A DNA stretch of 56,004 nucleotides from a virus. Taxonomy: Duplodnaviria; Caudoviricetes. Within the stretch, counting starts at the first letter, position 1. The number at the start of each line of letters is the position of its first letter. A program made the position numbers and the translations under genes. A model generated the notes under the pieces. The model was not told where the DNA came from. It saw nothing but the letters and a program-made list of their open reading frames with translations, and did not search any database. Shown piece after piece: positions 3,601 to 27,546 of this stretch. The stretch lies in the IMG/VR virus record IMGVR_UViG_3300020178_001420, positions 1-56,004 of that record; one strand, 5' to 3'.

Positions 3601-6600
3601 TTCTGGATTAATCGGTGGCGTAGTGTCTTTTGGCGTTAATATTGGATTATCTATTGAGCTTGTGTATATACTGTATTTTCCATCAAATTCATGTATCCTA
3701 GCTCTTAAATAATAATTTTTATTAGCTAATAAATTTGTAAATACCCCGCTCCCTGTATTGCCTACTCCATAAGTAACATCAGAAAATTGGGATCCTACAA
3801 TTTGTCTATATTGCGGGTCTGATGCTAAATCTACTTTGTAATATGCATGCTGATAATTTAATTCATCTTCGATTTTATATGATATAAAAGCATGTATAGA
3901 TCCATCTCCTTTATCATCATCCTGTAAACCTGATAAAGCTCTTATTTCGATTGGGGCTAATGCTTCTGTTAAACCTACAGATATCCTTTGGCCAAAATCT
4001 GCTATAGGATTATTTGTGGCCACACTAAAATCCCCTGTATTATTAGAAGTATCTACAGCTCTTAGCCAAAAATAATATTCCATATTTTCGTTTCTAGCAA
4101 AATCTTTCAACGGTATAATTTCCGAAGTGGATTTTGTTTGCTGATGAATCATTGTTCCTTCGCTTCTACCAGTATTATTTGCAAAACCAGAATATAACAC
4201 TATTCGATCTAAATCGAAGTCTCTTGGATTATCCCAAGATAGAAAAATGTTGTTTCCATTTTTCACTGAACTTACCCAGGTCGGCACACCTGGCTTAGTT
4301 TTGTCAGGTGGGGCATAAATATACGGAGAATTTATAATGCCTGGATTGTCAGAAAATTTTGCATTTGAAAGTGGTATGTCTTGCCCCCAGTTAGTTTCCA
4401 AAACATCCAAAAACACTCTTGTTTCTACTTCATATAATCTGTTGCCTTTAGCTTCAAATGAAAAATGACCTGAACCCATCCCTATTCTGCTTGGATCGTA
4501 AGAAGCCTTGTTTGTATCAATAAAAGATGAAATTGTCGTATCTTGGGTTTCTTGATATTTCGTTAAATAGTATTTAAATGATTCTTCATTTTGTATACTT
4601 CCTGAATAAAAAACATGAATCAAAGATCTTCCATCTGTAGTTAACTCTCCGCTTGTATGAACATTTGGCCCTGCTAGATTTGCATATCGGTATGTGTAAC
4701 CTGTATACATTCCAGTGTTATTAGATGTATCTACAGCTAAGGCATGAAAAGGGAAGCTAGTTTTTTCCCATGATTCCTTCCCCTTGTCTCTAAATGAGTC
4801 TATAGTAAAAGAAGGGAAATCGTCAGGCAAAACAGATGCAAATGGTGCTTGTATTGGTTCGTTCACTATTCTTGCATCTGCAGCGTTTTGCTCTTCTTCA
4901 CTCATTCCGAAATTTTCTTTTCCGTCACCTGTGAATAGTAATATTTTAGCTACATCATATTCTTTTGGCATATCCCAGGAAAATCTAAAATTAGAAAACT
5001 GTTTAGAGACTCTAAAATTTTCCAAAGGTGATGGAGGTATGTTATCTTGACCTAAAGTGGTTCTACTTTCTCCGTCTGGAGTGCTTCTTCCATCTACAGT
5101 AAAAGCTGATAATTTTCCTAAATAAGTGCTATTTGGCAAGACTTCTAAAATTTCTAAATGTCCCGATGTCCCAGCATTATATTTTGGATCAGCTACTGAT
5201 ATATCGGATTTTCTTATATTTATACTTTTCGAAGGGGTGCCATTTGTCTCATCATATATTTTTAATATATATCTGTCAAATGCTTTTGCCTCATGATAGC
5301 TTCCAGAATAAAATGCATGAAGTACTGGTCCAATATGGTATGAGTCTGTACCTCCTGCCACTTCTCTAATTTCTCCAGATAAATATAAAGAAGGTGGCAC
5401 TTTTAAATCAAATAAACTTAGCAAGTTACTATTCAACGGGTCACTTAAATTACTTGCATAATCAAAGGCTCTTAAATGAAAAGCTCCTGTTTCATTAAAG
5501 CTAATTCTGTTTCCATCATTATCCCTTATGGTTCCGTCTGAAGTGTCAGCTTCATATGTAAAATAAGTCGTATTAGGACCGTAAACCTCTGCAAATTCTG
5601 AACCCGCTTTTGGTTCAAAAAATTCATTCCCTTCTAGTTTCGTATCTTTTAGGTCTGTAAATTCAATATCTGGATTATTGCCTCCTAAATGTCCAGTATA
5701 TATTCTATATCCTGCCAAGTCTCTTGGTTTGTCTTCTTGACTCCATGCAAAGTTTAAAGAATTTGGGAATAGTGAGCTTATTTTAACCTTAAAGGTTTTT
5801 GGTTTTCCAGGTGGGACATTATCTACATTAGCTCTAAAAAACCCAATTTTATTTGCTGACCTTCCATATTTATTAGCCTCACACCATCTAAATTCATAAT
5901 AAGCATCTGGATTCGGAACTTCAAACTCTCCAGATAAAACATTGCCAGTTGTTAAACTTGAATAAGTTTCTCCAAAAACATCACAACCTTCTATTTTCAA
6001 TTCTCCCATTTCTTGGGGTTCTCTCGCTCGTCGAACTTCTATAGATTGATTAAAATTATCTTCTTCGAATCCTGGTATAGACACTTCTTTTCTAGTCTGT
6101 CCTCCAAATACCGCTTTCTTATTATCGGGCCCAAATTGCCCTCCGTCGCTTAAGTCTGCAGCCGAAGGATCATAAAGTATTTTGTATTGAGCACATCTTT
6201 CTCCACTCAATACATATTGTCCATTTTGCAATACATTTACTCCTCTATTTTTAGAAGATGATAGTCTTGAGAAATAGTCTTCTTTTATTTCTTGAACTCT
6301 AATCTCATACCTTCCATCCGCACTTCCTTGGTAATATGAAGCGTTTTGCATGGTATTATGAAAGTAATATCTAACTTTCGCTTTTGGCTCTCCTAAACTA
6401 TTTACATACCCAGAGGAAGTGAGTATTAAATCTACTGTATTTTCTCTAGGAAAACCAAAATGTATTATCTGTTCTTCTGTTTCTCCTTCATCTACTAATC
6501 CAGGGCCTCCTCCTCCTGCTCCTGGATTAGCATCTTCCGTATCAAAACTATCTCTAAACCCAGGTGATGTGAAAATTGGAGAATCATCATCTGCTATGTT

Positions 6601-9051: not shown

Positions 9052-9052
9052 G

Positions 9053-9817
9053 TTAACTCCTAAATAAATCTACATGCATTGCCCCAACCGTGTTTCCTTC
9101 ACTATCTATTTCAGTGTCAGAAACTTTATCAAAAGCAGCTGTTCTAGCATTTAATAAAGAAGAAGATACTACATGACTACCCACTCTCAATCGACCATAA
9201 CCAAGTGGCACTGGGACACCTTGTTGTACATTATTCATGGGTCGCTGGAAAGTATAAGATGTAGTTGACTTTAATGTCGGGGCAGCATCTTCTCCCAAAG
9301 TTGGAGGCTCTGGATCGTCTATTAATTCTTGTTTGAACCCTTCCAATAATGCCCAATTTCCATATTCATATGATAGATCTGATGCAAGATGAGATAGATT
9401 ACCAAAAAACCCACCAAAACTATCAAACCAACCATCTCCACCAGGATTAGCCCAATCTCCTAATTTATCAAATCCCCAACCTAAAGTTGATCCCGCAGCC
9501 CAGTCTCCTACACCGCCTCCCCCTGTTAAGCCGCCTTCAAACAGGCCTAAAATCATTTCAAATTTACCTCTTACTCGCGGGAAAATGTGTAAGCTTTTTT
9601 TCCCTTTTAATGATACTTTTATTTCTTCTTTTGCGCTTAAAGGCTTTCTATCTGCATATATTTTATATGTAATTTGCTCGTTTTCATATAAAAACCTTCT
9701 GAAATCTGGAAAGTTAGCATCTAATGCTCTTACTACTTCTTGAGTATTTTCAACACTTAAATTATGTTTTTTTCCAAATTTTTTACCTAAAATTCCATGT
9801 AAATTTACCTCAACCAT
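9053..9817 (-). CDS. Tail assembly protein I (ubiquitin-like N-terminus)
   Basis: VNLHGILGKKFG N-terminus and QGVPVPLGYGRLRVGS C-terminal motif typical of lambda gpI; lies between K and J. Confidence 0.88.
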   Translation of the reverse strand: MVEVNLHGILGKKFGKKHNLSVENTQEVVRALDANFPDFRRFLYENEQITYKIYADRKPLSAKEEIKVSLKGKKSLHIFPRVRGKFEMILGLFEGGLTGGGGVGDWAAGSTLGWGFDKLGDWANPGGDGWFDSFGGFFGNLSHLASDLSYEYGNWALLEGFKQELIDDPEPPTLGEDAAPTLKSTTSYTFQRPMNNVQQGVPVPLGYGRLRVGSHVVSSSLLNARTAAFDKVSDTEIDSEGNTVGAMHVDLFRS

Positions 9818-9832
9818 ACCTTTTTCCTATAC

Positions 9833-10210
9833 TCAAGTTACACATGATAAAGTTTTTTTCAGAGATTTTAAATGCTTGCAATCTTCAATTTCATTAATGT
9901 ATGTTTTTTTTGTTTCTTTTTCATACATCAAAAAAGGTATTTGCAGGTATTCTGAATTTAATAAATCATATTTTGATAATCCATTAGTTCCATATGGGTG
10001 CGAATGAAATATGCATACTATTTCTCCATTGTTGTGAATATCAATATAGTCTTTATCACATATAATAAATTCATGTTTTTTGTTATTTGCCATATTGATA
10101 CATTCTTTAAATAAAAATCTATTTTTTGATTTGTAAATAATTCCACACACTTCTTCGTCGCTATTCTCTGAAATTTTTATTATATATTTTATTATTTTTT
10201 CTAAAGACAT
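9833..10210 (-). CDS. Tail assembly protein K-like, JAB/MPN domain only
   Basis: EEVCG ... FHSHP...LSKYD JAMM motif; no NlpC/P60 domain. Likely start is the ATG at 10210, adjacent to the gpL stop. Confidence 0.87.
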   Translation of the reverse strand: MSLEKIIKYIIKISENSDEEVCGIIYKSKNRFLFKECINMANNKKHEFIICDKDYIDIHNNGEIVCIFHSHPYGTNGLSKYDLLNSEYLQIPFLMYEKETKKTYINEIEDCKHLKSLKKTLSCVT

Positions 10211-10211
10211 C

Positions 10212-11117
10212 TTAAAATAACCTGCTAGAAGGAAAGCCTCCAAATGGTAGGCTTATTTCATCCCTAAACCTTAATTTACATCCATTGAGGGTTTTTGAGC
10301 ACTCATCTCGTACCCAATTAACATTACTGATACTCGGCTTGTTCGTATCTGAGGATGTATGGTCTTGTGAGCACACATAGACTGTATGTCTTGTGTCATT
10401 ACCTTCTCTGGTGATTAAAAACACAGCATCATTAATTCTATAAGCTTGATTCAACTCCCACAAACCTTTATCCACTATGACTTTTTTAAATTTTACATTA
10501 TTTGCATCTGCTACTGGGTTTCCTACATAGCCGCAATTTTTACCTCTATACTTCCAATAACAATAATTATTTATTACTTTTCTTCTTGGAATTGTCACAT
10601 TTTCCATATCAAGAGCATTCGAAAGCTCAAATTCTGCATAAAATTTATTTTCTTGTATTTTGTGATTTATAATCCATATGTCGTCCCTAAGTTTTGCTTG
10701 GGGATCTGGATTTACACCTATTTTATCCCAGTATCGTTTATCTTGTTGATAATTTAAAAAGTTTTTTTCATCTAGAAATTTCACAAAAGTTCTCGTTCTT
10801 TTGACTTTAGCTTTTAAAAAATCATTTTTATTTACAATGTATTTAGAAAGAAACCCGTTAAAATTGATTATTTTAAGAGTCGGTCTAGATAAATTTCCAT
10901 CGCCCCTTACCTCTATATTTTCTATAGAATATGGGACATAGAAATACTCTTTGTCGTCAAAAAAAAGTGAAGAATGAACGGCTCCGTGACCAGAATGCAT
11001 TCTTATTACGTCTTCCGTGTTTGGTATAGAGAATATTTCTATTAACTCCACAATCAAAGATCTGTTCGAGAGAAAAAGCTCCCTGTTTATTTTCGCACTG
11101 TTTTGTTGAGAAGGCAT
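10212..11117 (-). CDS. Minor tail protein L
   Basis: RPTLKIIN, RTRTFVKFLD, CYWKYRGKNC ... CSKTLNGCKLRF, LPFGGFP: the four-Cys Fe-S motif of lambda gpL. Confidence 0.93.
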   Translation of the reverse strand: MPSQQNSAKINRELFLSNRSLIVELIEIFSIPNTEDVIRMHSGHGAVHSSLFFDDKEYFYVPYSIENIEVRGDGNLSRPTLKIINFNGFLSKYIVNKNDFLKAKVKRTRTFVKFLDEKNFLNYQQDKRYWDKIGVNPDPQAKLRDDIWIINHKIQENKFYAEFELSNALDMENVTIPRRKVINNYCYWKYRGKNCGYVGNPVADANNVKFKKVIVDKGLWELNQAYRINDAVFLITREGNDTRHTVYVCSQDHTSSDTNKPSISNVNWVRDECSKTLNGCKLRFRDEISLPFGGFPSSRLF

Positions 11118-12881: not shown

Positions 12882-12882
12882 A

Positions 12883-13719
12883 TTATGTATATTTTATATT
12901 AACCCCCCTCATTGATGAAGAGACATAGCTTAATGTAACGGATGTATTATTCTCTGCGTCTGTAGATAAAGATTCTGATTTTAGTTCAGCATTTTCAAAA
13001 ATATATTCAACTTTTTTTTCTTGGCCGCATTTCCCTGATAATACAATTTTTATATCTTTAATATGTATGCCTGTCTTTATATAATCATAAACATTTTTAG
13101 ATTCATAGTCGTCTATATCTATAGTTGTCGTGAAATTTTGGGTGACGGGTAATTGAGTAACTACTTCGCATGGATATATGTCTCCTATCTTATAATAAGG
13201 TTGGTTATTAAACTCTATGCTAAATGAAAAGCTGGTAACTCGGTTAGTTGAAACTCCATCGCAATATAAAAATATACCGCTATTAGGGGGTATAAATAAC
13301 TCTTTTTGAGGGTTTTCTTTGATTTCTAAATTAGACTCTGCCTCGTTTCCCATTTTCCCGAATATTGATGCAGATAAACTTGTTTCAGGAATTTGATCTA
13401 CAGTAAAAGAGCAATCATAATTATTTATATACCCGCTTTCAAAGTTTAAAGATTTATCTCCGTATTTTAAACCTCCGTTAAAACCACTTTTGCTTAAAAA
13501 TAGCCTTGTAATCGGCTCGTCATCAGATATCATCAACCTAGAAAAACTAAGATTTCCAACCCCCGCACCGTTTTGCATACTTTTTATAGCTCCATTATAT
13601 CCCAGGAAAACTTCCTTCTCTGAGGGTATTGTATAACCCATGTTAATAGAAGATATTCCAGATATTTGTGTTCCATCTATATAGAAAGCTTGCTCTTCGT
13701 TTGCTATAAAGTTTTTCAC
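12883..13719 (-). CDS. Tail-tube-like minor tail protein
   Basis: SGYINNYDCSFTVDQIPE aligns with NGYVSDYSFEASVGSIPT of the major tail protein; FENAELKSESLS aligns with FKGAKLDSESIS. Confidence 0.65.
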   Translation of the reverse strand: MKNFIANEEQAFYIDGTQISGISSINMGYTIPSEKEVFLGYNGAIKSMQNGAGVGNLSFSRLMISDDEPITRLFLSKSGFNGGLKYGDKSLNFESGYINNYDCSFTVDQIPETSLSASIFGKMGNEAESNLEIKENPQKELFIPPNSGIFLYCDGVSTNRVTSFSFSIEFNNQPYYKIGDIYPCEVVTQLPVTQNFTTTIDIDDYESKNVYDYIKTGIHIKDIKIVLSGKCGQEKKVEYIFENAELKSESLSTDAENNTSVTLSYVSSSMRGVNIKYT

Positions 13720-16700
13720 TACCTCAATCTACCTCCAGTTCTTTGCTCTTTAGCTATAACGTCCATCACCGCAGCCTTCACTTTTTTAGCAAAACTAGCG
13801 GATTTAGTTGGATCAGACATTGAAGAACTAACACCTCCCCCAGAGTCAACATTAATATTTATGTTTACATCTCCATGGGAAATATTTGATACACTACCTG
13901 ATCCACTACCGCCCTGAACTGGCAGGGTTCCCGTATTTAATTGATTCATAACATTAGAACCATATTTTTTTACGGACTGCGGGTTCATTACATACTCACC
14001 AGATGTTAACACACTTGGAACTCCTCCGCCTTTATTCCTAAGTATTACTTGATTTTGTGTCACCTGCCCCCTTTGTCCAGTTCTAGCCATTTCAGAGGCG
14101 GCTATTTGAGGCCCTTCATAACGTCTTAACGCATCATAATAATCATGCGCTGCGACCCTATCATCTGGGTTCTTGTAAATTGAGGTTGCGCTATTTCCAG
14201 GCACGTCAATGTATCCATCTCTTTTGTATTGCTTCTCAGATCTTTCTTTAAATCTTTTTTGGCCAAAATCACTTTCTCTATACTTCTGTCTTGCAAAATC
14301 TGCCACCTTTCCAATCACAGCCCCCCCGACCATTCCGTAAAGCATTCCAAGCATTGCATTTTTTTCCAGTTTCTTTTGGTAATCTTTAACTTTTTCCCTG
14401 TATTTTTCTTGGGCGGCTGTTTGTTGATCCTGACGTAATATATTTTCTTTGTCTTTAAAGTATTCCTGAATCACTCTATCGTTCGCTATAGCATATGAAC
14501 TTAAATTTTTATTGATTCCTATTTCCCCTCTCGTTACTTTGTATCTCGTTACCGAACCATATTCATTAGTGTCTTCATACTCTTCTCTTTTAGCGGCGAA
14601 AGGAGCTCCAATACTGAGTCCAACTGCCCCTCCGTCTTTATATCCACCCAGTATTCCTTGATTCAAATTGTTCAAAAAGTGAACTCCGTATTTATCTACA
14701 GAACTTTTTTTAATAACATATTCCCCACCAGTAAGCATTGCTGGAACATCATCCCTAACACCACTTCCACCAGTTACCATGCCTCCATAATTATAACCAA
14801 GCCCAGTTATTTCTCCAAATGCACTTAAAACTCTTGATGAGGCACTTTTTAATACAGCTTGCTGTATATGATTTATCAATTGGATGCCTACTTTTTTCAT
14901 GGCATTGCCGAAGCTATCGGCGCCGCTTAATGCCACACCCATTGCATCAGCAAGACCGTCCCTTAATTGCATAGGCAAATCTTGACCAAGTCTTGTATAT
15001 ATTTGCTCTGCATCGCTTTTTACATTTGCAAATCCAGATTTTAATCCATCAGTCATGTTGGGAAAAAACTCTCCCATGAATCCTCCGTCACGACGAGTTG
15101 TTCTTGACATTTGTGATGCAAGGTTTTGCATGCTTTTATCCAATGTTTCTATTGAGCTTTTTAATGAATCCGCAGCTTGTATGCTTGCTGGGTCTTGAGA
15201 TTGGTAACCTTGACTTTGTCTCACTTCTGATAAAGCAGCTAGTTTTTCAGTCCTTTCATCTATCATTGAGGAAAATTTTTCAAGCTGATCAGGAGTACCA
15301 ATCGATTGTTGGTTTGCCATTATCCTAGCTTCAGCCACTTCAGCTGAACTCGCTGAAGGGTCTCTAGCTAAAACTTCATATTGTTTTTGTCTTCCTAATT
15401 GCTCTACAGCTCTATCAAATGCAGATGCTCCAGCTTGAGCTTCCACATCTAATTGATTTAAATTTCTAAATTTATCAATAGTTCCTGATGAATATTTTCC
15501 AAACTTTAAAGAGCCTTCGAAGTTCTCAATATCTCTTTGAGCTTGGCGCAGAAACTCTTGATTCGTTAGTTGATTAATTGTTTCTTGATATTTATCTCCA
15601 AATACCTTCAGAGTATCTACAAGATTTTTAAATTTATTATAATTTTTATCGCTCGAAGGTATTGTTGATAACATGTTATTTAATTCATCATTAATACCTT
15701 GAATGCTTGTTCCCTCTTTTATCTTCTCATCGTATTTTTCAGTTAAATTAATATTGATATTGTCAAATGTTTTGATTTGTTGAGTTACGGCCTCATTGGC
15801 TTGCCTTGATTTATCAATAACAGTTTTTGAAGATTGGTTTGGTGTTGAAGATTGTTTAGATGCAGCCTTTAATTCAGTATTTATATCTTTTAGTTCTGAA
15901 TTTAATTTTTCTAAACCTTTGTCTGCATCAGCCAATACAGCTTCCTGTGCTGCGACAAGTTCTTTTTGCTCTTTAATAGCTTCTGGTAGCCTGTCCCTGA
16001 CTTTCTCATAATCACTAGAATCTATATTCCTGACGCCCTCTGAAATCATTGACGATCCTGGCCCAGCTGCATAAACTTTATAACTTTCTTTAAGTAAGTC
16101 AGGCATATTAGCTCCGCCTTCGGACAAAGAACCTCCTACATATTTCTTTAGCAGCTTGTCGCCTGCCGAAGTTAATGGTTGAAAAATTCCTTTATTTTTA
16201 TCTTCCTTAAATAAATTAAATGCTTTTTCGAGAGCATCTAAAGATTTTCTTTTTGAATCTAAAATACTTGCTTGGAGCTTTCTTGCTTCCCCTGCCTGCT
16301 CTACAGCTCCTTTCTTTGCTCCTTGCTTGTCTCCAAGTTGAGCTATATAATCGCTAGGGGCTCTAGGTCTTGAAATTCCAGGTATTCCTCCACCTTTATT
16401 TACTGACACATTCGTTTTCGAGCCATCTGGGATAATTAAATTATTTCTAGATGTTTCTCCTCCATCTGGAGCCAATTCATCTTTAATAGTGTCTCCTAAT
16501 TTATTGAGAGAATTGATTAGATCTCTCTCGGACATTAATCTAAGAGCATCTCTTTTGAAATTCGAAAGCATCTCTGATTGTTTTAGAGCTTTTTCTTCTT
16601 CAAATATTTTTCTTTGTATTGAGTCTTGACGTTTTATTTCTTGCTCGTCAGTCCTCATCCCTCTAAATATAGGAGACTGCTGAAATTCCAATTTACTAAT

Positions 16701-19700
16701 ATTGCTGGATGCTCTTCCTTCAGCTCTCATCAATGATAAATCAGATCGAGCCTCAAACAAACCTATTGAAGATGATCTATCTTCAAGCATGCCTTGTATT
16801 TTAGATTGAATTTTATTTATTTGATTGGTTAATTCTAAGTTTCTTTTGTCTGCAGCTATAGATTCTGCCAAAACATCACTTTTATCATAAGTCTGATTAA
16901 GCATTTCTTGCAACATTTTAGCTTGTTCAGGACCTATAGATTTGCTGAATGAAACTAATAAGTCTCCCCCTTGGTTAACAATGCTTTCATAATTTTTAAC
17001 TAATGTTTCTATGGCGGCTCGCTGTTCCTCAAGAGTACCTACCCCCAAATAGGCTTTAAGTTCTCCAGGGTCATTTGGCATTTGTATACTGCCTTCTCCA
17101 CGAGCATTTAAACCAGCTATTTCAAAAATTTTAGATGCTCTATCTTGATTTATCTTAGTTTCTATTTGAGCATCTAGTTGCCTGCTTGTTACCATTGATT
17201 GTAGTGCTCCAGGGCCTTGACTATTTACAGCTCTTCTAACTGCATCTAATTGAGGAGCAGTTAAATCCAATTCTTTTTCTTTTGACATAACGCCCCTAAG
17301 TAAAGAAACTACATTTTCTCTATCTTGAGTTCTGGCTTTCAAAGAAGCTTGCATTTGAAATATTCTAGACTCTTCGTTTGATAAAAATTCTGTAGCATTT
17401 CTACCAGACATGAATTGAGCTGCAAAATTTGATCTAGCCTGTCTGTTTTGAATATTGCCAGAAGTTCTAATTCTATCAATCTCCATAGCCTTAATGCTTT
17501 CAGCTATGGTTGTTTTAAATTTTTGAGAAACATTAAATAACTGACTAGCTATGGCGTCTGAAGCATCTCTAGTTTTTTGAAAATTCTCCACATTTTTCTT
17601 GGCCTCTTCTATGATTTCAGCAAAAGAAACATTGCCTTCTTTGAAAAGAGCCATCATTTGATCTACAGCCTCCCTTGACATTACTCCTGCATCTACCAGC
17701 TTATCAAACTCAGCTAAATCATCTAAACCCAAATCGGTATATTCTTTTAATTCTTTTTGAGCTCCACCTATTCCGAAAAACCCTCCAGTTTCAACTTGTC
17801 TTCCCGCATAAGCGCCCACTCCAGCTCCTATTGAAGCCATTAATAGAGGACTAGCTAGACCTCCAGTTAAAGCAGTTAAAAGAGCTGACCCACCTATTAA
17901 TGCAGCAGCACCAATCCCAGCTCCTACACCGATAGCCCCACCAGCTAGAGTTCCTGTAGATGTGAAACCTTGTCTACCTTCAGCTGTTGCTCTAAGGTTT
18001 TTCATTGTTTCTGGGTCTAATTGTTTACCAGTTGCAGTTCTAGTTTCAAGACTGGTTTTTATAGCATCTAATGTACTAAAAACTTGGCTTTCTGTGGTTT
18101 TACCATTTCTGATATTCTGAGCCATTATAGAGCTGATAGCAACTCCAGCATTCCCAGCATTCCCAGTTCTTAATGCCATTCCGAAGTTTTGAATTGATGT
18201 TGCTACTGCCGTTTGGTCACTTAATTCCTTTTCTATCTTAGATAAAGTGAGTGGGTCTCCTCCAGACTGAGCCACTCGCTTTAAAATTTTTGGATCAGTA
18301 ATATTTGACATCATTTGATTGATTGAAGAATCAATTCTATCCAATGACATTGTATCTCCTCGCCCAAAAGCCTCGGCTCTTGCCGAAGACATTCTTTGTA
18401 TATTTGAAATTGCTTGGATGTTTTGAGATGTTACAGAAATTTCTTTTTCCCTCATTCTGATTTGCTCATCTATAGTTAGCGTGGCTTTTTGCATAGATGA
18501 TATAAATCCAGCCGCTCCTCCCACTATGGCTCCTGGAAGCCCAAAAATAGCACCCATTCCAGCTCCTACTAATGTGCTTGGCAAAGCTCCTGTGTCACTT
18601 ACTCTATAAGATCCATCTTTTAAAGTTGCCCTGTCTTCTCTGCTTACTTTATTTTCTAAAAATCCAGCTAGAGCAGGCAATATAAAAGAAGCTCCTAACC
18701 CCACTGACCCACCAAAACCTTTTAATCCATTGGCAAATTGTTTCGTTGGGTCTTTTAAAAATCCCCCTATTCTGCCCGCTCTATTTGCTATCCCTCCTCC
18801 AGCTCCACGGCTAATATTTTGCCCAAGGTATCCTGCTTGAAAAGACCCGAGAAGTCTCTGTCCAAAACCTTTAACCCCTGTTTCTCTGGAAGCTAAGTTG
18901 TTCCTCGCCTTGCTTGCTGAGCTTTCAGACCTCCGTCTTGATTGGTCCTGCTTTACGGTTTCTCTTATTGCTGATGTCGCACCTTGTAATGTTGAAATTG
19001 CCGTAAGATTCCTGGCGCTAGAAGAAGCATCATTTCTTAATTGTTTTTCTAGGTTATTTGCTAATTTTGTATTTCCTGATTGTAAGGCTTTTGTAAAAGC
19101 ATCTAATTTTCCTAAAAAGGGCTTCGCATTTCCCCTCACTAAACCACCAAATTCACCACTTCTAAATCCAGCCATAGCCAATGATTTATTTGAAGAAAGA
19201 ACCCCTTGCTCTTTCATGAAGGAACTAAATTCTCTCCTTGCTGATGTTCCCATACTAGCAATTATTTTATTTGCTTCTTTTTTGTCTTGTGTTTGAATTC
19301 CCTTTGATTCTAAAAAGCTTTGTGCATAAAATTTCCTAGCTTCATTTTTGTTAAATCCCTTACCTCTTTCTTCAAACACTCTAGATTGAGACCTAACCTT
19401 ACTCTCTGCTTTTAAAGCTTTGTCCATTGCCCTTGCTGTAGTTAAAGGCATATTCATCATTTGTTTTGCTTGCGTGTCTAAGTTTCTATTTAATGCATTT
19501 AGGGTTCTTAGTGTTTCTTTATTTTGTTCTACATTAGTTCCCTTAGATATGTTTTTCAGTGCTAGTGCTTGTGCGGTCGCCAAAGACTTCTCAAGCTCTC
19601 TTGGTCCTTGATTTGCAAATTGAGCTGCTAAAGCTCCTACAGCGCCTCCTTTTTGAGCTACTGATTGTAAAGCTTCAGCTCTAAACATTTGTTTTGCGAA

Positions 19701-22700
19701 TTGTCGCCTGTCTAGAGATTCCTTCCCCATCAATCCAACTCTAGCTGATTCTTTTAAGTTGTATTCTTTTATGAGATTGGTGGTTTTTCCAAATGAATTT
19801 GCTATTCTATTTAAATATTGAGCTCCTCTTTTAGTGCTAGCGCTAAATAAGTTTATACTGTTTCTGGCTTCCATGAAAGATCTCTCCATCATATTTAAAC
19901 CTTCTGCTCGAACGGCTCCTGCCGCTTGACGTCTTACATTAATTACATCTCCTAGATCCAATGCATAATTAGGCATTGAGGTTTTTTGATTAGGATTTAA
20001 TCCTCCGTGTAAAGCTCTAGCTTTAGCCAAAGAACCTCCTTCTTGTTCTTTGTTAACAACAGCTAGTCCAGGGTTTCTTGAACTTTTAAGAGAGGGGGCG
20101 GAGACGACTTTAGGAGTCACTCCGAAAGAAGCTTCTCTGGATACAGCGTCCGCTACAGCCCCAGCATATCCAGGATTTGAATTCAGTATATCTTTTGCTT
20201 TACTAGAAAATAATGCATAGTTTGGCACATGGCCTTGATTCGACATTTTATAAGTCCAAGAGTCGCTGCCCCAATTACCTTCTGGCTCAAGCTCATCCTT
20301 ACTGAATTTTAAATCTTTATTTTTCTCGACTTTAAATTTTCCTTTTTTGGCTATACTGTCAATTACTCGCATAGCTGATTTTGATGTAGTCATATCTCCA
20401 TACAAACCAGTATAACCACTCTTTTTAGCATAACGAGCCATGAATTCATAAAGTTGACGACCGTAACCTTTGCCTCTTAATGCTTGATCAGATTCACCAG
20501 TAAAGATAACTTGCAATCCCGTCTTTCCAGGTCTTTTTGGATCATCAATTTCTGTAGCTTGAGACTTTACGAATTTTTTATCCCCTACAAACGAAGAAAA
20601 CTGAACCTGTTTTGGCGGCCCAAATGGCCCATCTTCCCCGCCAAACTGTTGAGTTTTTACTCTAAATTTTGCAAAGTTTGGAATTAATCCAGCTGCAGCC
20701 ATATTAGGATCTACTAATAATTTTTTACCTCTATGAACAACGCTTTCAATTCTATCTAAATGTACCCTTCTGTAACCTTTATCTCCAGGTCCAGCTGAAG
20801 GTATGTGAAGAACTCTAGTTCTACCCACATTTGCTGTCCTATCGAAATCATCCCAACTATCAAATCCTTTTGGTGGAGGAGCTCCTTTTTTATATTTATG
20901 AACACCATGTCTGCCGACATATGTTATCGGATCTCCACCTTTTAATGGGTGATACTTTACAGATTTATATAAATGATTTTTTATAATATTGTCTAGCTCA
21001 GACATACCAATGACTCCATCATGGCCAGATTTACTAACCGCAGCGCTTCTTTTCTGGCTCGCATTAATTCTCAACGGAATGAAATTAGGAACAAAACCAT
21101 CTGCAAAACCGAATCTTTTAAACGCCTTTGCTCTTCTTTTATCAAAAAAGTCATCGACTATATCTCTTTGTCCAAAAAATCTAGAACTTCTTTTGAATAA
21201 TTTTCTTTCAGCTTCTTCTGGCCCTACCCCATCAAGCATTTTTTCAAATTGGCCAGGAATCAAGCTTGGTAAAAATTTATCTAAATATTTAGAAGATTGT
21301 GAAGCATTCACATTTTGCATTACAGTCTCCTGTACAGCTTTTAATGTTTTTAATTGGTCTCCTCTAAATCTGCCAGAAAGTTCTCCAAAATAACCAGACT
21401 TCCCAGTCATGGAGCTAGCGGATTTACTTGGTGTAAAGCTTTTGTAAAGTTGAGCTAATTGCATTCCTACGGGCCTAGCTTTAGTAATCCATTGCTCTGG
21501 ATCATAACCTAATATCATTCTATTAGATTTAGGTCTATCATCTAAAGAGCTTGATTTCCCGTAGAATTCCATGAACTTATTTTCACTTAATAGATTGCTT
21601 CTTCTGCTTGGGTCACCTAACATACCCTTCACATTTTTTCTTACTTTAGATCGAACACCTTTTGTTCCAAAAAAGTCTTCCCTTAGTAAGCTTAAATTAT
21701 CCGCCCTTGTTTTACTGAATCCATCTTCAGAATGTTTCATTGCGGGGACTGCTCCGTATTTATCTCGGAAAAATTTTTTCTCGCTAGAGTTTAACCCCGA
21801 ATTAATATTTATAGAAGAAGATTTTCCAGTCAAATAACTATAAAAACTATTTAAAACTCCTGGGCTAGAAAGTATTTCTCTTTTTCTTGCGGAAGAAATA
21901 TTACGCATTCCATATGTTGAGTCGCCTTCAAATAAAGACTTATACTGATTAATTGGTATACCAGTATATGACCCCTTAAATTCTAAAATATTAGCATCAG
22001 CATTTTTGATGAATGTTTTTAATATTGATTGTAAACTGGATTTATCTAAATATTTAAGAGCATCAGTATTATTAAGTAATCTTTTTTCTTCTGAATAAGG
22101 ATCAAAAACACCCGTCTTTTTAGGAAAATCAAATGTGGATGAAAGTAGTGATCTTACTAAAGATTGTTCGTTAAGATTTTTATCAAAACTAAATGCTGAG
22201 AAATTTGGAATTTGTAATTTTCGATCTCCTAAATCTTTAATTCTTTTGTTTCTTACGGCGGCTCGTTTCGTGTTTAAATCATAGACCATGCCATTAAGAT
22301 AACCATCTTTGGGGCCCATTGACCATGTTTGCGGGACATTGTTGCCGTAAAGTTTTAAGCTATCTTCTACTTGTTTCAAGAATCCAGGAGAAGCATTTTT
22401 AAGAAATTTTCTATGAATTAATGTTCTGACGGAGTCAAGCTCTGACTTGGTTCTCATCGAAGCACTAAATGAATGCCATACATCGCTTAATGTCCTGTCT
22501 GTACCGTCATTCAAAGATAGTCCAGTAGCTCTTCTTTTGCCGTAGATTAAGCCTGCCGCTACATTAGCTGGTGTTGCTTTATATGCAAAATTTGGTATCA
22601 CTCCAGGTCTTTGAGTATTCAAAGACTGCAGCATAGTATTCGGTATAATTGTATTAGCGAAAAGTTGCCCAGGGATTACTTTACCAGGTCTTTGATAGTA

Positions 22701-24842
22701 AGATGTTGGATTGTAATACATGGTCAATGCCTTTTCATACATTGAATCTGGCAAGTCACCAAATACCATTGCTTTATTTTTTAGATTTGCTTTTTGTGAT
22801 TTTGATTTTAAATAAGACGGTAAAGAGCTCCTAGCTATATCTCTTTCCCTAGCAGCTTGCTGCTCCAAATTATCCATTATAGATCTCTGCTCGTTAGACA
22901 TTTGGGAATAATTACTATCCCATCTTGATTTTTTTCTTGAAGCAAAATTAGGAATTAAACCCCCGTTAGCATAAGGATTAAATCCATGTTTATTTTTAAA
23001 ATTGTTTTTATATTCTTTCCCTGCTCTACTTCTTTCTGGAGGGATAATTGCAGGTTGTTTCATCCCAGGGAATTTCTTGATCTTTTCAGCGCTGTTATAA
23101 ATAATTTGACCTAATCCAGAAACATTCATTGACTTAACGGACCCAGCTGTATATCCTCCTTTTTTAGCTCCATTTTTTTCAGCTATCCTTTCTGATGGGC
23201 TTACATAGTTAGGAACATGTCCTCCACTTCTAATCTTACTTAAGCTTGGTCCGTAACCAGCCCTAGAGATAGCTGGAGCTATAGATCTTGCAGCGGCAGC
23301 TATTTTCATCTGTTCTCGGCTCTGAGCTTGAAGAATAGAAAGTATTGTTTTTTCTTGAGCCGCTCTATTTCCTTCTTGGGATAGTATTCTTTTTTGAAGG
23401 TTTGAATTTTCTCCTAATACTCCAACTATTGATTGCTGTATCTGTCTTTGCTGCTCTGTTGTAGAAACTATTCCCAGTAATTCTTTAGCACTTCCTGCTA
23501 AAAATTTAAAAGTTGTCCTGAATAACTTAGCAAATAAACCTATTCCAATAACCAAGCCTGGGCCAGAAATCACATTACCTATTCCCTTTAATGCTCCCTT
23601 CATGAAATCTGCCCCAGCACTTTCACCATCTTCTTTTGAAAGTAAATCACTTAAACTGCTAAGGTTATCTCTTATTAGGGTTAAATAAGTTGTTATATTA
23701 TCGCTAAATGCTATATTTCCAGCCAGTGCTGTCAGTTCCTTAATCACGGTTCCTGTTTGGTCTGCTAGTGCAGACATAGATCGATTTAAAATTTCATTTT
23801 TCTTATAAGCTTCATCTGTTGCCTGAGATGCTATTTGAGTTGCTCTTGCTAAAATGCTATTTTCATCAGATAAATCTTTAATTGCTGCCTTCAAAATGTT
23901 GATTTGAAATACCCCACCAACTTGTTCCGCTACAGCAGCTTTTGTTGTGTCAGTTAAACCCTCATATGTTTTTGAAAGATTTTCTAAAACAGTTATTGCG
24001 GGTAATGTGTTACCAGCTATGTCTCTTACAGCTATGCCAAGCTCTTCTAACCTCTTAATAGTGCTAGATCTTTGCACCCTTGTGAAAATAGTTTTAAAAC
24101 TATTACCAATAACTTTACCTCCTCTTGCAGTTGCTTGCTGAGCTGCCGTAACCGCACCTAATAGTTGATCAAAACTCACTCCCGCATCATTTGCTACGGC
24201 TCCAGCTCTAGAAACTCCATCGATTAAGTCTTCAGTACTAACTGCAAACTGAACATCAACAGCAGCCATTTTGCTTAAAATTCTTGTAGAATCCAATCCT
24301 GCCTTGTTGAATGTGTTTAATGCGGCTGTAAGTCCACTTACAGCACTAGCCGCATCCAACCCAGTCAGTCTTGTTAAAATAAGAGCATCATTAGTCCTCT
24401 TCAAGGTTTCTTCCATGGTTAAACCTTGACGAGCCAATTCAGTTGCCGCAGTTGCTACAGTCCCAAAGCTTTGAGCTGTATTTTTTGCAACCTTGAATAG
24501 TCCACTTGAGAATTCCTCTAGTTGCCTATTGGTTAAACCCATAACAACATTTATTTCCGTCATGCTCTTTTCGACCTGCATAGCGGATTTAACTAAATTA
24601 GCAAATGCACTTTGTACACCATTAATGATTCCAACCGACGCCCCGAAAGCTAAAACCCGAGCATTAGACGCTTCTAAAGATTTATTAAATTCACTAACAG
24701 ATCCTGTGATTTTACCTAAAGCTCCTGTGAATTTTCTATCATTAATATTAAGATGTATACCTCCTTTGGAGTTAAATCTTCTTACGGCCTGATTGATAGA
24801 TTGCTCTAGGCCAATTTGTACTGTTTCAATTTTTATCGGCAT
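13719..24842 (-). CDS. Tail tape measure protein (TP901-family N-terminal domain) with large modular insertion
   Basis: N-terminal TMP domain (ELARQG..., GNSFKTIFTRV, LEELGI), Ala/Gly-rich hydrophobic segments, coiled coils, C-terminal GGSGVRDDVPAMLTGGEYVI motif; lies between major tail and tail tip genes. Confidence 0.93.
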   Translation of the reverse strand: MPIKIETVQIGLEQSINQAVRRFNSKGGIHLNINDRKFTGALGKITGSVSEFNKSLEASNARVLAFGASVGIINGVQSAFANLVKSAMQVEKSMTEINVVMGLTNRQLEEFSSGLFKVAKNTAQSFGTVATAATELARQGLTMEETLKRTNDALILTRLTGLDAASAVSGLTAALNTFNKAGLDSTRILSKMAAVDVQFAVSTEDLIDGVSRAGAVANDAGVSFDQLLGAVTAAQQATARGGKVIGNSFKTIFTRVQRSSTIKRLEELGIAVRDIAGNTLPAITVLENLSKTYEGLTDTTKAAVAEQVGGVFQINILKAAIKDLSDENSILARATQIASQATDEAYKKNEILNRSMSALADQTGTVIKELTALAGNIAFSDNITTYLTLIRDNLSSLSDLLSKEDGESAGADFMKGALKGIGNVISGPGLVIGIGLFAKLFRTTFKFLAGSAKELLGIVSTTEQQRQIQQSIVGVLGENSNLQKRILSQEGNRAAQEKTILSILQAQSREQMKIAAAARSIAPAISRAGYGPSLSKIRSGGHVPNYVSPSERIAEKNGAKKGGYTAGSVKSMNVSGLGQIIYNSAEKIKKFPGMKQPAIIPPERSRAGKEYKNNFKNKHGFNPYANGGLIPNFASRKKSRWDSNYSQMSNEQRSIMDNLEQQAARERDIARSSLPSYLKSKSQKANLKNKAMVFGDLPDSMYEKALTMYYNPTSYYQRPGKVIPGQLFANTIIPNTMLQSLNTQRPGVIPNFAYKATPANVAAGLIYGKRRATGLSLNDGTDRTLSDVWHSFSASMRTKSELDSVRTLIHRKFLKNASPGFLKQVEDSLKLYGNNVPQTWSMGPKDGYLNGMVYDLNTKRAAVRNKRIKDLGDRKLQIPNFSAFSFDKNLNEQSLVRSLLSSTFDFPKKTGVFDPYSEEKRLLNNTDALKYLDKSSLQSILKTFIKNADANILEFKGSYTGIPINQYKSLFEGDSTYGMRNISSARKREILSSPGVLNSFYSYLTGKSSSININSGLNSSEKKFFRDKYGAVPAMKHSEDGFSKTRADNLSLLREDFFGTKGVRSKVRKNVKGMLGDPSRRSNLLSENKFMEFYGKSSSLDDRPKSNRMILGYDPEQWITKARPVGMQLAQLYKSFTPSKSASSMTGKSGYFGELSGRFRGDQLKTLKAVQETVMQNVNASQSSKYLDKFLPSLIPGQFEKMLDGVGPEEAERKLFKRSSRFFGQRDIVDDFFDKRRAKAFKRFGFADGFVPNFIPLRINASQKRSAAVSKSGHDGVIGMSELDNIIKNHLYKSVKYHPLKGGDPITYVGRHGVHKYKKGAPPPKGFDSWDDFDRTANVGRTRVLHIPSAGPGDKGYRRVHLDRIESVVHRGKKLLVDPNMAAAGLIPNFAKFRVKTQQFGGEDGPFGPPKQVQFSSFVGDKKFVKSQATEIDDPKRPGKTGLQVIFTGESDQALRGKGYGRQLYEFMARYAKKSGYTGLYGDMTTSKSAMRVIDSIAKKGKFKVEKNKDLKFSKDELEPEGNWGSDSWTYKMSNQGHVPNYALFSSKAKDILNSNPGYAGAVADAVSREASFGVTPKVVSAPSLKSSRNPGLAVVNKEQEGGSLAKARALHGGLNPNQKTSMPNYALDLGDVINVRRQAAGAVRAEGLNMMERSFMEARNSINLFSASTKRGAQYLNRIANSFGKTTNLIKEYNLKESARVGLMGKESLDRRQFAKQMFRAEALQSVAQKGGAVGALAAQFANQGPRELEKSLATAQALALKNISKGTNVEQNKETLRTLNALNRNLDTQAKQMMNMPLTTARAMDKALKAESKVRSQSRVFEERGKGFNKNEARKFYAQSFLESKGIQTQDKKEANKIIASMGTSARREFSSFMKEQGVLSSNKSLAMAGFRSGEFGGLVRGNAKPFLGKLDAFTKALQSGNTKLANNLEKQLRNDASSSARNLTAISTLQGATSAIRETVKQDQSRRRSESSASKARNNLASRETGVKGFGQRLLGSFQAGYLGQNISRGAGGGIANRAGRIGGFLKDPTKQFANGLKGFGGSVGLGASFILPALAGFLENKVSREDRATLKDGSYRVSDTGALPSTLVGAGMGAIFGLPGAIVGGAAGFISSMQKATLTIDEQIRMREKEISVTSQNIQAISNIQRMSSARAEAFGRGDTMSLDRIDSSINQMMSNITDPKILKRVAQSGGDPLTLSKIEKELSDQTAVATSIQNFGMALRTGNAGNAGVAISSIMAQNIRNGKTTESQVFSTLDAIKTSLETRTATGKQLDPETMKNLRATAEGRQGFTSTGTLAGGAIGVGAGIGAAALIGGSALLTALTGGLASPLLMASIGAGVGAYAGRQVETGGFFGIGGAQKELKEYTDLGLDDLAEFDKLVDAGVMSREAVDQMMALFKEGNVSFAEIIEEAKKNVENFQKTRDASDAIASQLFNVSQKFKTTIAESIKAMEIDRIRTSGNIQNRQARSNFAAQFMSGRNATEFLSNEESRIFQMQASLKARTQDRENVVSLLRGVMSKEKELDLTAPQLDAVRRAVNSQGPGALQSMVTSRQLDAQIETKINQDRASKIFEIAGLNARGEGSIQMPNDPGELKAYLGVGTLEEQRAAIETLVKNYESIVNQGGDLLVSFSKSIGPEQAKMLQEMLNQTYDKSDVLAESIAADKRNLELTNQINKIQSKIQGMLEDRSSSIGLFEARSDLSLMRAEGRASSNISKLEFQQSPIFRGMRTDEQEIKRQDSIQRKIFEEEKALKQSEMLSNFKRDALRLMSERDLINSLNKLGDTIKDELAPDGGETSRNNLIIPDGSKTNVSVNKGGGIPGISRPRAPSDYIAQLGDKQGAKKGAVEQAGEARKLQASILDSKRKSLDALEKAFNLFKEDKNKGIFQPLTSAGDKLLKKYVGGSLSEGGANMPDLLKESYKVYAAGPGSSMISEGVRNIDSSDYEKVRDRLPEAIKEQKELVAAQEAVLADADKGLEKLNSELKDINTELKAASKQSSTPNQSSKTVIDKSRQANEAVTQQIKTFDNININLTEKYDEKIKEGTSIQGINDELNNMLSTIPSSDKNYNKFKNLVDTLKVFGDKYQETINQLTNQEFLRQAQRDIENFEGSLKFGKYSSGTIDKFRNLNQLDVEAQAGASAFDRAVEQLGRQKQYEVLARDPSASSAEVAEARIMANQQSIGTPDQLEKFSSMIDERTEKLAALSEVRQSQGYQSQDPASIQAADSLKSSIETLDKSMQNLASQMSRTTRRDGGFMGEFFPNMTDGLKSGFANVKSDAEQIYTRLGQDLPMQLRDGLADAMGVALSGADSFGNAMKKVGIQLINHIQQAVLKSASSRVLSAFGEITGLGYNYGGMVTGGSGVRDDVPAMLTGGEYVIKKSSVDKYGVHFLNNLNQGILGGYKDGGAVGLSIGAPFAAKREEYEDTNEYGSVTRYKVTRGEIGINKNLSSYAIANDRVIQEYFKDKENILRQDQQTAAQEKYREKVKDYQKKLEKNAMLGMLYGMVGGAVIGKVADFARQKYRESDFGQKRFKERSEKQYKRDGYIDVPGNSATSIYKNPDDRVAAHDYYDALRRYEGPQIAASEMARTGQRGQVTQNQVILRNKGGGVPSVLTSGEYVMNPQSVKKYGSNVMNQLNTGTLPVQGGSGSGSVSNISHGDVNININVDSGGGVSSSMSDPTKSASFAKKVKAAVMDVIAKEQRTGGRLR
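19959..23228 (-). repeat. Eight dispersed peptide repeats (G)Gx[IVM]PN[FY](A) inside the TMP
   Basis: GGHVPNYV ~23202-23228, GGLIPNFA ~22941-22964, PGVIPNFA ~22584-22607, LQIPNFS ~22197-22217, DGFVPNFI ~21078-21101, AGLIPNFA ~20670-20693, QGHVPNYA ~20214-20237, TSMPNYA ~19962-19982. Confidence 0.9.
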
Positions 24843-24859
24843 GCCTTATTCCTTACAAA

Positions 24860-24869
24860 GGAATTACAC
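24860..24869 (-). promoter_or_regulatory. Putative late promoter motif (GTGTAATTCC) upstream of TMP
   Basis: Same GTGTA+AT-rich motif found before several other structural genes; lies just downstream of a terminator. Confidence 0.55.
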
Positions 24870-24879
24870 ATAAATAAAC

Positions 24880-24905
24880 AAAAAAGCCCTCTTAAAGAGG
24901 GCTTT
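24880..24905 (-). terminator. Rho-independent terminator after major tail gene
   Basis: Inverted repeat AAAGCCCTCT-TAA-AGAGGGCTTT with a T-run on the minus strand. Confidence 0.85.
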
Positions 24906-24926
24906 AATGATTGGCTTGAAACCAAA

Positions 24927-26609: not shown

Positions 26610-26688
26610 GATAATTTTAGATTAAATGTATATTGTGTTGTACTTCTAATTACAGACAAGTCCTTTCAATGTGAAATTTTTTATTAAT

Positions 26689-27546
26689 TTAATATAATCT
26701 AGGATACCTTAATTTAGATACTTCAAAATCTAAAAAACCTATATACAATGTTGGTGATATAACTTGAGACATGTTTTCGCTTATTTTTGAAGTGGTAACT
26801 CTTTCTATGAAAAATAAACTATCTTTCCTTTGTTCTTGTAAATCTTCATAACTATATGAACTCGATTTTAAATCTCCGTATTCATTAATAGGGTGATCCG
26901 AAAAACTCAACTCTGCAAAACAGCAATCCCTTGTGTCCGCAAATAATGAAATCATTCCATCTAGTTGATATAAATTTTCCGCAAAAACAACTACTTTAAA
27001 AGTTAAGTTTGTTTTGTTTTCGCCTCCAAATGCAAAAGGTTCGTTTTCTATGAATTCATTGTTTATAAATACAGCAGGCACAACAAAATCATAAGGAGCT
27101 ATCCCGCTCTCAGGAACATAGAACCTGCTATTGGTATCAAATTTAGTCTCTATAATTAATGATTCCTCACTCTGGTTTGTATTGTATATGTTGAAATCTT
27201 TTGTAGCAAAACTTCCGTTTATTTGCATATGTTCGTTAGTAGCATTACCAGTAAACACGACTCCTCCATTAAAAAAATCTATAAAATAACCATTGTTGGG
27301 GTCTGATTTATCTATAGGACCACTTGCATTAGATATATATTCAGGCACATTTACTCCATCTATTGATTCATGAACCCATTGTTTGTATGGGCTACTATAT
27401 CTATAAAATCCATCAGGTAATCTTTCGTCTTCTATATAATACAGCTTAGTATCAAAATTTTTATATGCTTCTCCGTGTTTCAACATCCAATGTTCAAACC
27501 ATAAAGTAAAACTAGTTGTAGCGTTATGTCCAAAATTATTTTTCAT
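26689..27546 (-). CDS. Putative tail terminator / neck protein
   Basis: Immediately upstream of the major tail gene; PAVFI...EPFAFGG...VVFAEN...LDG pattern resembles tail-terminator folds. Confidence 0.5.
   Translation of the reverse strand: MKNNFGHNATTSFTLWFEHWMLKHGEAYKNFDTKLYYIEDERLPDGFYRYSSPYKQWVHESIDGVNVPEYISNASGPIDKSDPNNGYFIDFFNGGVVFTGNATNEHMQINGSFATKDFNIYNTNQSEESLIIETKFDTNSRFYVPESGIAPYDFVVPAVFINNEFIENEPFAFGGENKTNLTFKVVVFAENLYQLDGMISLFADTRDCCFAELSFSDHPINEYGDLKSSSYSYEDLQEQRKDSLFFIERVTTSKISENMSQVISPTLYIGFLDFEVSKLRYPRLY

Follow-up and report, generated by a model that had tools for sequence, protein, structure and literature searches.

A shuffled cassette array with a conserved junction peptide in the tape measure protein of uncultured, apparently marine siphophages

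The window, that is, the whole stretch of DNA analysed here, is a 56,004-base viral contig from IMG/VR (IMGVR_UViG_3300020178_001420) with a completeness estimate of 38%. It contains a gene for a giant tape measure protein (TMP), the middle of which is an array of modules punctuated by a short recurring peptide, here called the junction motif (Table 1). Pfam identified PhageMin_Tail (PF10145) at TMP residues 119–310 (E = 1.3e-26; 94.2 bits against a cut-off of 33.2), and nine tape measure families matched in a PHROG search; the other Pfam matches to the whole protein (GNAT, Rx_N and FliJ) were below threshold. Because L-, K-, I- and J-like genes of a lambda-like tail tip follow downstream on the same strand, these genes form a siphovirus tail module, and the window protein is, judged by its matches, the TP901-type TMP of that module. 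Its C-terminal ruler part contains Gly-rich hydrophobic segments and is 29%–39% identical among relatives.

Table 1. Features of the TMP gene and of the tail tip genes in the window (residues are those of the TMP)
Feature	Position	Strand	Basis
TMP gene, 3707 amino acids (aa)	13719..24842	(-)	Open reading frame (ORF) list and translation; Pfam PhageMin_Tail; PHROG tape measure families
Conserved N-terminal part, residues 1-540, including PhageMin_Tail	23223..24842	(-)	72-78% identity across 16 related loci
Cassette array, residues 541-1626: eight junction motifs and seven modules	19965..23222	(-)	Motif positions
Junction motif 1 (GHVPNY)	23205..23222	(-)	Motif match
Module 1, residues 547-633, universal 'first' module	22944..23204	(-)	First in 69/69 family occurrences
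Junction motif 2 (GLIPNF), within module 1	22944-22961	(-)	Motif match
Module 2, residues 634-752, orphan, ends in junction motif 3 (GVIPNF)	22587..22943	(-)	Family 35
Module 3, residues 753-881, orphan, ends in junction motif 4 (LQIPNF)	22200..22586	(-)	Family 11, alignment A5
Module 4, residues 882-1254, orphan, ends in junction motif 5 (GFVPNF)	21081..22199	(-)	Family 7, alignment A2
Module 5, residues 1255-1390, orphan, ends in junction motif 6 (GLIPNF)	20673..21080	(-)	Family 4, alignment A4
Module 6, residues 1391-1542, GNAT-like, ends in junction motif 7 (GHVPNY)	20217..20672	(-)	Profiles, phmmer
Module 7, residues 1543-1626, universal 'last' module, ends in junction motif 8 (SMPNY)	19965..20216	(-)	Families 0 and 5
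C-terminal ruler part, residues 1627-3707	13719..19964	(-)	Translation
Lambda-like tail tip genes	643..11117	(-)	PHROGs 18, 30, 32 and 31
L-like tail gene	10212-11117	(-)	PHROG
K-like JAB tail gene	9833-10243	(-)	PHROG; Prok-JAB
I-like tail gene	9053-9817	(-)	PHROG
J-like central fibre gene	643-9051	(-)	PHROG

The tripeptide PN[FY] occurs at TMP residues 544, 631, 750, 879, 1252, 1388, 1540 and 1624 and nowhere else in the 3707 aa. These eight occurrences compare with 0.40 expected from composition (mean 0.41 and maximum 5 in 2000 shuffles), and for [IV]PN[FY] seven were observed against 0.04 expected. Motifs 4 (KLQIPNF) and 8 (TSMPNY) have no Gly at −3, and in motif 8 Met replaces Ile/Val. 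The original prediction for this DNA had described eight PN[FY] motifs that delimit seven basic and mutually dissimilar spacers and break an Ala-rich pattern, and most of this description held. All eight motifs lie between residues 544 and 1626, and the count of seven spacers stood, although their lengths had to be corrected to 87, 119, 129, 373, 136, 152 and 84 aa (motif to motif). The seven modules fell into seven different families upon clustering, and in none of the 21 profile–profile pairs did the alignment extend past the terminal motif (best probability 37%). All seven modules carry a net positive charge (pI 9.6–10.1), adding up to +75 for the array, and its composition (Ala 6%, Pro 5%, aromatics 10%) differs from that of the flanks (Ala 10%–13%, Pro 1%–2%, aromatics 4%–6%). 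The sequence TIIPNT, which had been taken for a degenerate junction, proved not to be one; it aligns with IIPKN/LIPKN inside the same module of relatives and is a conserved internal feature of that module rather than a decayed junction. A GQVPNY match in the J-like fibre (2802 aa; window positions 2611–2628, minus strand) is probably due to chance, being unconserved in all five relatives compared, of which one has IPSY at the site and the other four are without the motif.

A search with TMP residues 539–1640 returned 164 giant proteins (2038–6488 aa). PF10145 was present in nearly all of the 120 that were listed, and after exclusion of the one identical to the window protein (P0002), 119 homologues remained for counting. 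At least three motifs were present in 118 of them and at least four in 116 (median 6, range 0–15), amounting to 808 motifs against 39 expected, and the first motif typically lay near residue 545 or 635. A logo of 816 motif instances read [AS]-x-G(91%)-[FLHY]-[IV](92%)-P-N-[FY]-A(55%). Among shorter proteins carrying the first module, 50 of 56 had three or more motifs, and the smallest complete TMPs (1824–2035 aa) all consisted of the first module, one inner module and the last module. When the 119 proteins were cut at the motifs, 675 modules in 157 families were obtained (all-against-all hhalign covered 633 of 861 family pairs). The family of module 1 took first place wherever it occurred (Table 1); in a second 'first' family (family 2), the N-terminal 90 aa are this same module (hhalign 100%), fused to the next one after loss of a motif. 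At the other end, the homologous families 0 and 5 (hhalign 97.7%, E = 2.4e-12) were last in 107 of 114 occurrences. Between these fixed ends, the arrays held 1–12 inner modules in 87 distinct architectures among the 119 proteins, and 50 family pairs were found in both orders.

This rearrangement is visible even among the 16 viral loci whose N-terminal 540 aa share 72%–78% identity with those of the window (Table 1), where the inner orders differ and include 4-8-7-6, 7-4-8, 8-7-4-6, 11-4-7-8-45 and 11-35-4-7-8-24-...-35-4. In the subclade of the window (21 proteins), the N-terminal part measured 541–544 aa and the C-terminal part 1999–2386 aa (standard deviation 76), with the array ranging from 695 to 2145 aa (standard deviation 367). 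The motif number and module content thus vary behind fixed flanks, as had been predicted for homologues. Assembly artefact was rejected as the source of the shuffling, because identical architectures recur in contigs from different samples (L004/L020, L007/L018, L011/L012 and L009/L010); the junction DNA also differs between copies.

The points at which homology ends coincide with the motif. In a comparison of 556 junctions, pairs sharing only the upstream family stayed similar to position −6 and pairs sharing only the downstream family became similar from +2/+3, so that positions −5 to +3 alone were common to all. The clearest single case was the GNAT-like module 6, which is 95% identical in amino acids to its copy in a related locus (L005), whereas identity is 33%, 56% and 57% for the other array modules shared with that locus, 74% for the last module and 78% for the N-terminal part. 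At the DNA level, identity was 59.8% over residues 1255–1370, 92.6% over residues 1392–1536 and 69.9% over residues 1544–1626, and the high-identity tract (approximately residues 1377–1539) lies between the motifs at 1385–1390 and 1537–1542. This pattern is the footprint left by a recent exchange of a single cassette. The homology break at the motif, the shuffled orders and this one-module tract of 93% DNA identity bear out the earlier proposal that the motif is a recombination joint of exchangeable modules, and the comparison of sequences shows that cassettes have been gained, lost and reordered by recombination with end points at the junction.

The junction itself was conserved as a peptide. 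Codons at 84 motifs (five loci, L010, L012, L018, L019 and L020, being left out as near-duplicates or too short) followed gene-wide synonymous usage without DNA-level conservation, and all four Gly and Pro codons as well as both Asn, Phe and Tyr codons were in use. Because synonymous codons vary in this way, the analysis shows that the junction is maintained by selection acting on the peptide and not on the DNA. Among 775 matches to G.[IV]P.[FY], Asn followed Pro in 725, and most of the other 50 fell in a related motif at the TMP C-terminus, G-x-[IV]-P-[GRK]-[FY]-x-x-GG; exceptions within the array were mainly Ser, but also Asp and His. In two complete relatives (180 kb and 163 kb), all motif matches were in the TMP array (8/8 and 6/6, respectively), and a reversed-pattern control gave 0.

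The C-terminus of the window TMP (13719–14600, minus strand) carries two copies of a G-x-V-P...GEYV...K-Y-G motif followed by L-N-x-G, the equivalent in relatives being L-N-x-G-x-I-P-[GRK]-[FY]-x-x-GG. The array junction looks derived from this TMP-intrinsic motif, and the first module is loosely similar to it by eye, with no significant alignment.

One of the modules has a recognisable affinity. Module 6 matched Pfam GNAT at 18.3 bits (E = 0.0028), below the gathering cut-off of 20.7, and all five of its PDB profile matches were acetyltransferases aligned on an R-G-K-G-Y-G motif (E = 0.3–1.1). This motif was invariant in all eight aligned copies of the module and fits the form of acetyl-CoA motif A (R/Q-x-x-G-x-G/A). 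The five inner modules were compared exhaustively by phmmer with 1.84 billion representatives, and 27 proteins were found. Module 6 matched non-TMP proteins (E = 6e-8 to 6.5e-4) over stretches that are themselves Pfam-positive GNAT domains, the overlap being seen in P0133, P0135, P0136, P0138 and P0140, and some of these relatives are multi-domain proteins with Zeta-toxin, ParB_N or mCpol domains. The suggestion that at least one gap is filled by a complete enzyme domain is therefore upheld for residues 1391–1542 as far as GNAT-like homology goes, with the reservation that the Pfam cut-off was missed. Elsewhere in the family, Pfam recognised SNase and CI-type (CI-repressor) helix-turn-helix (HTH) modules and, weakly, PGDYG. 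No muralytic domain was detected: in the whole window TMP and in its separate modules, Pfam found none of the lysozyme, transglycosylase and peptidase families.

The remaining modules of the window were less informative. PHROGs gave no match for five of the seven modules and weak matches to families of unknown function for two. Module 1 had neither a Pfam nor a PHROG match, the relatives of module 2 in the phmmer search were solely TMPs or TMP fragments, module 3 had no convincing PDB profile match, and module 5 had none at E up to 10. Module 4 (373 aa) is divergent, with many indels; its PDB profile matches to polyubiquitin, which rest on a short Y-L-T-G-K-S-S-S-I stretch (best E = 0.001), were rejected as spurious, no stretch being individually significant. 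These matches are of note only in view of the ubiquitin-like and JAB folds associated with the lambda-type tail genes I and K. Across the family, a feature common to the modules was charge: 92% of the 675 were net positive, with +5.3 per 100 aa compared with +0.95 for the C-terminal part.

We favour, with moderate confidence, the reading of the array as a payload that enters the host cell. A fixed entry module and a fixed exit module bracket a variable string of basic, mostly orphan modules, each ending in [AS]xG[FLHY][IV]PN[FY]A. In lambda, the available text of a structural account places a TMP trimer with its C-terminus at the tail tip (PMC10721106). The TMP considered here would likewise leave the tail C-terminus first, ahead of the DNA, and because the array lies N-terminal to the hydrophobic, Gly-rich and presumably channel-forming segments, it would reach the cell last, just before the genome. 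There it could act as a pre-made payload for host takeover or anti-defence. Cytoplasmic targets are suggested by the GNAT, nuclease and HTH modules, the first of which depends on acetyl-CoA and the last on DNA. Being uniformly positive, the modules would be suited both to the tube lumen and to electrophoretic entry into a negative-inside cell. A magazine of effectors is plausible but thin, the recognisable domains being limited to GNAT, SNase, CI-type HTH and the weak PGDYG match.

The junction peptide might allow each cassette to be handled separately. Our first choice for its role is a processing site that frees the modules. As a second choice, it would be a joint for docking or unfolding, used during the stay of the largely unfolded array in an electronegative tube lumen. 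Cleavage at the motif, by whatever agent, nevertheless seems doubtful. A stronger form of the idea, in which the TMP is a true injectable polyprotein cut at PN[FY] during or after ejection, whether through its own activity or by a phage factor dedicated to the task or a protease of the host, is possible and can be put forward only tentatively; the cell would then receive free basic proteins, a dozen at most, before the genome.

Several observations weigh against delivery or against processing. Four of the five inner modules had no Pfam, PHROG or PDB-profile relatives and were found solely in such TMPs or their fragments, and Pfam returned PhageMin_Tail only for all 11 further module-rich TMPs and both of two others. 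Searches for S78 and ClpP proteases found neither in the window or the two complete relatives, and the motif is absent from other phage proteins and hence is not the site of a general maturation protease. The metalloprotease signature HExxH occurred in only 8 of the 120 listed TMPs and not in that of the window. Three copies of folded modules of 130–370 aa would be too bulky for a tube lumen of ~4 nm; the modules probably travel unfolded. The resemblance of the junction to the C-terminal TMP motif hints at a structural rather than a proteolytic role, and a Pro with Asn after it (in occasional cases Ser, Asp or Gly) has the look of a turn motif. Finally, the search of cultured-phage records described below found no cultured relative.

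Two candidate cutters were rejected individually. The head maturation protease was discarded on the missing S78/ClpP match and the absence of the motif from the head proteins of the window; a parallel search for S77 matched no control genome and was uninformative. An embedded zincin was discarded as a universal processing enzyme on the HExxH count. The HExxH modules of four TMPs (P0047, P0062, P0105 and P0117) do look like real zincin signatures, and Pfam assigned no peptidase family to the two examined (P0047 and P0105).

The modules might instead belong to the tail or penetration machinery and not be effectors at all. They could pack the lumen, interact with the tube, the chaperone or the tip, or bind the envelope, with the junction serving as a docking strand or turn taken from the C-terminal TMP motif and the variation reflecting adaptation to different tails or host envelopes. 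The likeness of the two motifs, the positional invariance of the first and last modules, the rarity of enzyme signatures and the failure to find a protease all fit this reading, and basic charge across 157 unrelated families would be expected from a common physical constraint such as an electronegative tube lumen. It is less easily reconciled with the GNAT, SNase and CI-type HTH modules, which have no obvious structural role, with the horizontal movement of single modules, or with the free change of order and number among close relatives behind a length-conserved ruler, which would be unusual for load-bearing parts. On balance, we regard it as unlikely. Considerably less probable is an autoproteolytic joint, in which the invariant Asn would drive self-cleavage of the Asn-[Phe/Tyr] bond after assembly or ejection of the TMP and no separate protease would be needed. 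Asn-dependent maturation cleavages are known in some virus capsids, and the near-invariant Pro-Asn, the confinement of the motif to the TMP and the failure to find a protease gene agree with such a joint; yet Ser, Asp or His stands in place of Asn at some junctions within arrays, and cleavages of this type need a structured catalytic environment, whereas the modules share nothing conserved beyond nine residues. Least credible of all is that the motif is mere microhomology for joining cassettes, with no role in the protein: homology does break at the motif, the exchange tract is bounded by motifs and some junctions (families D1 and D2) carry short direct DNA repeats, but these are imperfect (14–24 nucleotides at 71%–88% identity) and thus poor substrates for homologous recombination, the constancy of Asn at a variable position would be left unexplained, and the conservation is at the amino-acid level because synonymous codons are used in roughly gene-wide proportions.

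The original prediction had named no described system with this architecture, and none was found in the full-text literature searched, a body of text that most subscription journals lie outside. Among known systems, the closest to the array in mode of action are the polyvalent proteins (Iyer et al. 2017, PMC5512222). As described in the available text of that paper, these are also giant polypeptides of unrelated domains, GNATs included, in mosaic order, for which entry with the DNA and action before gene expression have been proposed; the multi-domain relatives of the GNAT-like module of the window are of a similar make. The same text mentions tape measure proteins nowhere and describes no conserved junction peptide. 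Several unrelated effector domains are expected of a member of that class; the window TMP has seven unrelated modules, of which one is recognisable, as GNAT-like. Two other traits place the array outside the class: the hallmark processing peptidase (MPTase) of polyvalent proteins is absent here (see HExxH above), and their ArdC-N, DarB-type helicase/methylase and ParB domains were not found in the window TMP by Pfam. The carrier, moreover, is here the ruler protein of a tail, in which the entry and exit modules are fixed. Viral polyproteins similarly comprise serial unrelated units split by a repeated short consensus, but they have a cognate protease that cleaves at that consensus and their units are not shuffled, whereas here they shuffle among close relatives.

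Other TMPs carry embedded functional motifs, as in mycobacteriophage TM4, and muralytic domains are present in T5 pb2 and staphylococcal TMPs. In these proteins, non-helical inserts act on the host at infection, and the TMP is ejected and often processed; theirs, however, are one or two fixed motifs directed at the cell wall, whereas the arrays described here have 3–14 modules with a common junction, no lytic domain was found, and the recognisable modules suggest cytoplasmic or nucleic-acid targets. In polymorphic toxins, a short peptide (VENN in CdiA, DPxGL in Rhs) likewise borders a conserved scaffold and swappable cargo and serves as a recombination joint, which in Rhs is also a cleavage site. 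Their cargo is single and C-terminal; here the modules form a serial internal array, with another motif, in another machine and in other organisms. TMP-related effectors of contractile injection systems (Sle1-type) share a TMP-derived scaffold with exchangeable domains that is loaded in the tube and ejected, but the available text on them describes a single C-terminal domain in an actinobacterial system rather than a phage, and no junction-motif array (PMC13277306).

If the modules are delivered effectors, a ready-made set of proteins would enter the cell before transcription, by way of the tail rather than the head, and a motif search would yield hundreds of candidate anti-defence or takeover domains without homologues elsewhere. 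The junction peptide might then also find use as a portable joint by which cargo is loaded into phage tails or similar particles. Should the TMP truly be an injectable polyprotein, the orphan module families, more than 150 in number, could represent a large reservoir of anti-defence and host-takeover proteins, shuffled by recombination and concealed in a structural gene, that gene-by-gene screens would miss. TMPs are usually treated as rulers with, at most, a lytic add-on; here the ruler gene carries a hypervariable cassette array behind a strictly conserved junction peptide. A survey of mosaicism in phage proteins saw signals in TMPs and, in the text available, could not confirm a genuine case (PMC10684548). 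Even if the modules are structural parts, the mosaicism of this TMP at the level of domains is clear and can be dated.

At least 220 protein clusters make up the clade, and all of them come from large siphophages that are uncultured and apparently marine. In a collection of 50,697 cultured-phage records, tblastn with the array region, the N-terminal 538 aa and a minimal-array TMP (P0075) found no array, the matches being solely to the N-terminal domain at ≤31% identity. An exact-pattern scan of IMG/VR with one motif variant found at least 120 stretches and returned 80 loci, among which 69 ORFs had at least two motifs and 69 were linked by BLAST to this clade. Four multi-motif ORFs from the scan showed no BLAST link and represent more distant arrays. 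In these distant arrays, Pfam gave a GNAT match of 30.3 bits after a Walker-A-like GPSGSGKT loop in one (L103) and a borderline GNAT match in another (L084). Both arrays, L103:2-2419 (minus strand) and L084:2-2689 (minus strand), are delimited by the motif, have no BLAST link to the clade and are followed by glycine-zipper-like segments (C19orf12-like matches). A further protein (P0128; 702 aa) has a mini-array without a PhageMin_Tail domain; it is perhaps a fragment, or else another type of protein that carries this array. It runs from a basic N-terminal part through a junction, a GNAT-like module, a second junction, a last-module-like stretch and a third junction to hydrophobic and coiled-coil sequence. 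In a genome scan, close TMP relatives (L021–L023) were met only on contigs of metagenome-assembled genomes labelled Candidatus Neomarinimicrobiota and Halobacteriovorax, which fits a marine origin; such binning of phage contigs is not host evidence.

Around the TMP gene, the K-like protein (136 aa) was the sole peptidase-like product found. Its Prok-JAB match (E = 3.9e-5; 23.9 bits) is below the Pfam cut-off of 25, and Pfam listed no NlpC/P60 match for it; NlpC/P60 is the second domain of lambda K. The three ORFs directly downstream of the TMP (278, 253 and 322 aa; 11152–13719, minus strand) and the three upstream (560, 285 and 220 aa; 24927–28208, minus strand) had no PHROG match. Pfam, run on five of these six (the 560-aa ORF being left out), gave solely a weak Phage_tube_2 match in the 278-aa ORF, so that neither the tube protein nor the tail chaperones were identified among the six by these searches. 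No RNA family was found by Rfam in window positions 13000–26000. Among the head genes, a 1263-aa ORF (37438–41229, minus strand) showed weak PHROG matches to tail-fibre-like families and families of unknown function. Within the same structural region, the ORF at 41254–41862 (minus strand) matched PHROG 3347, annotated as galactose-3-O-sulfotransferase (E = 2e-14), an unusual auxiliary gene in such a position.

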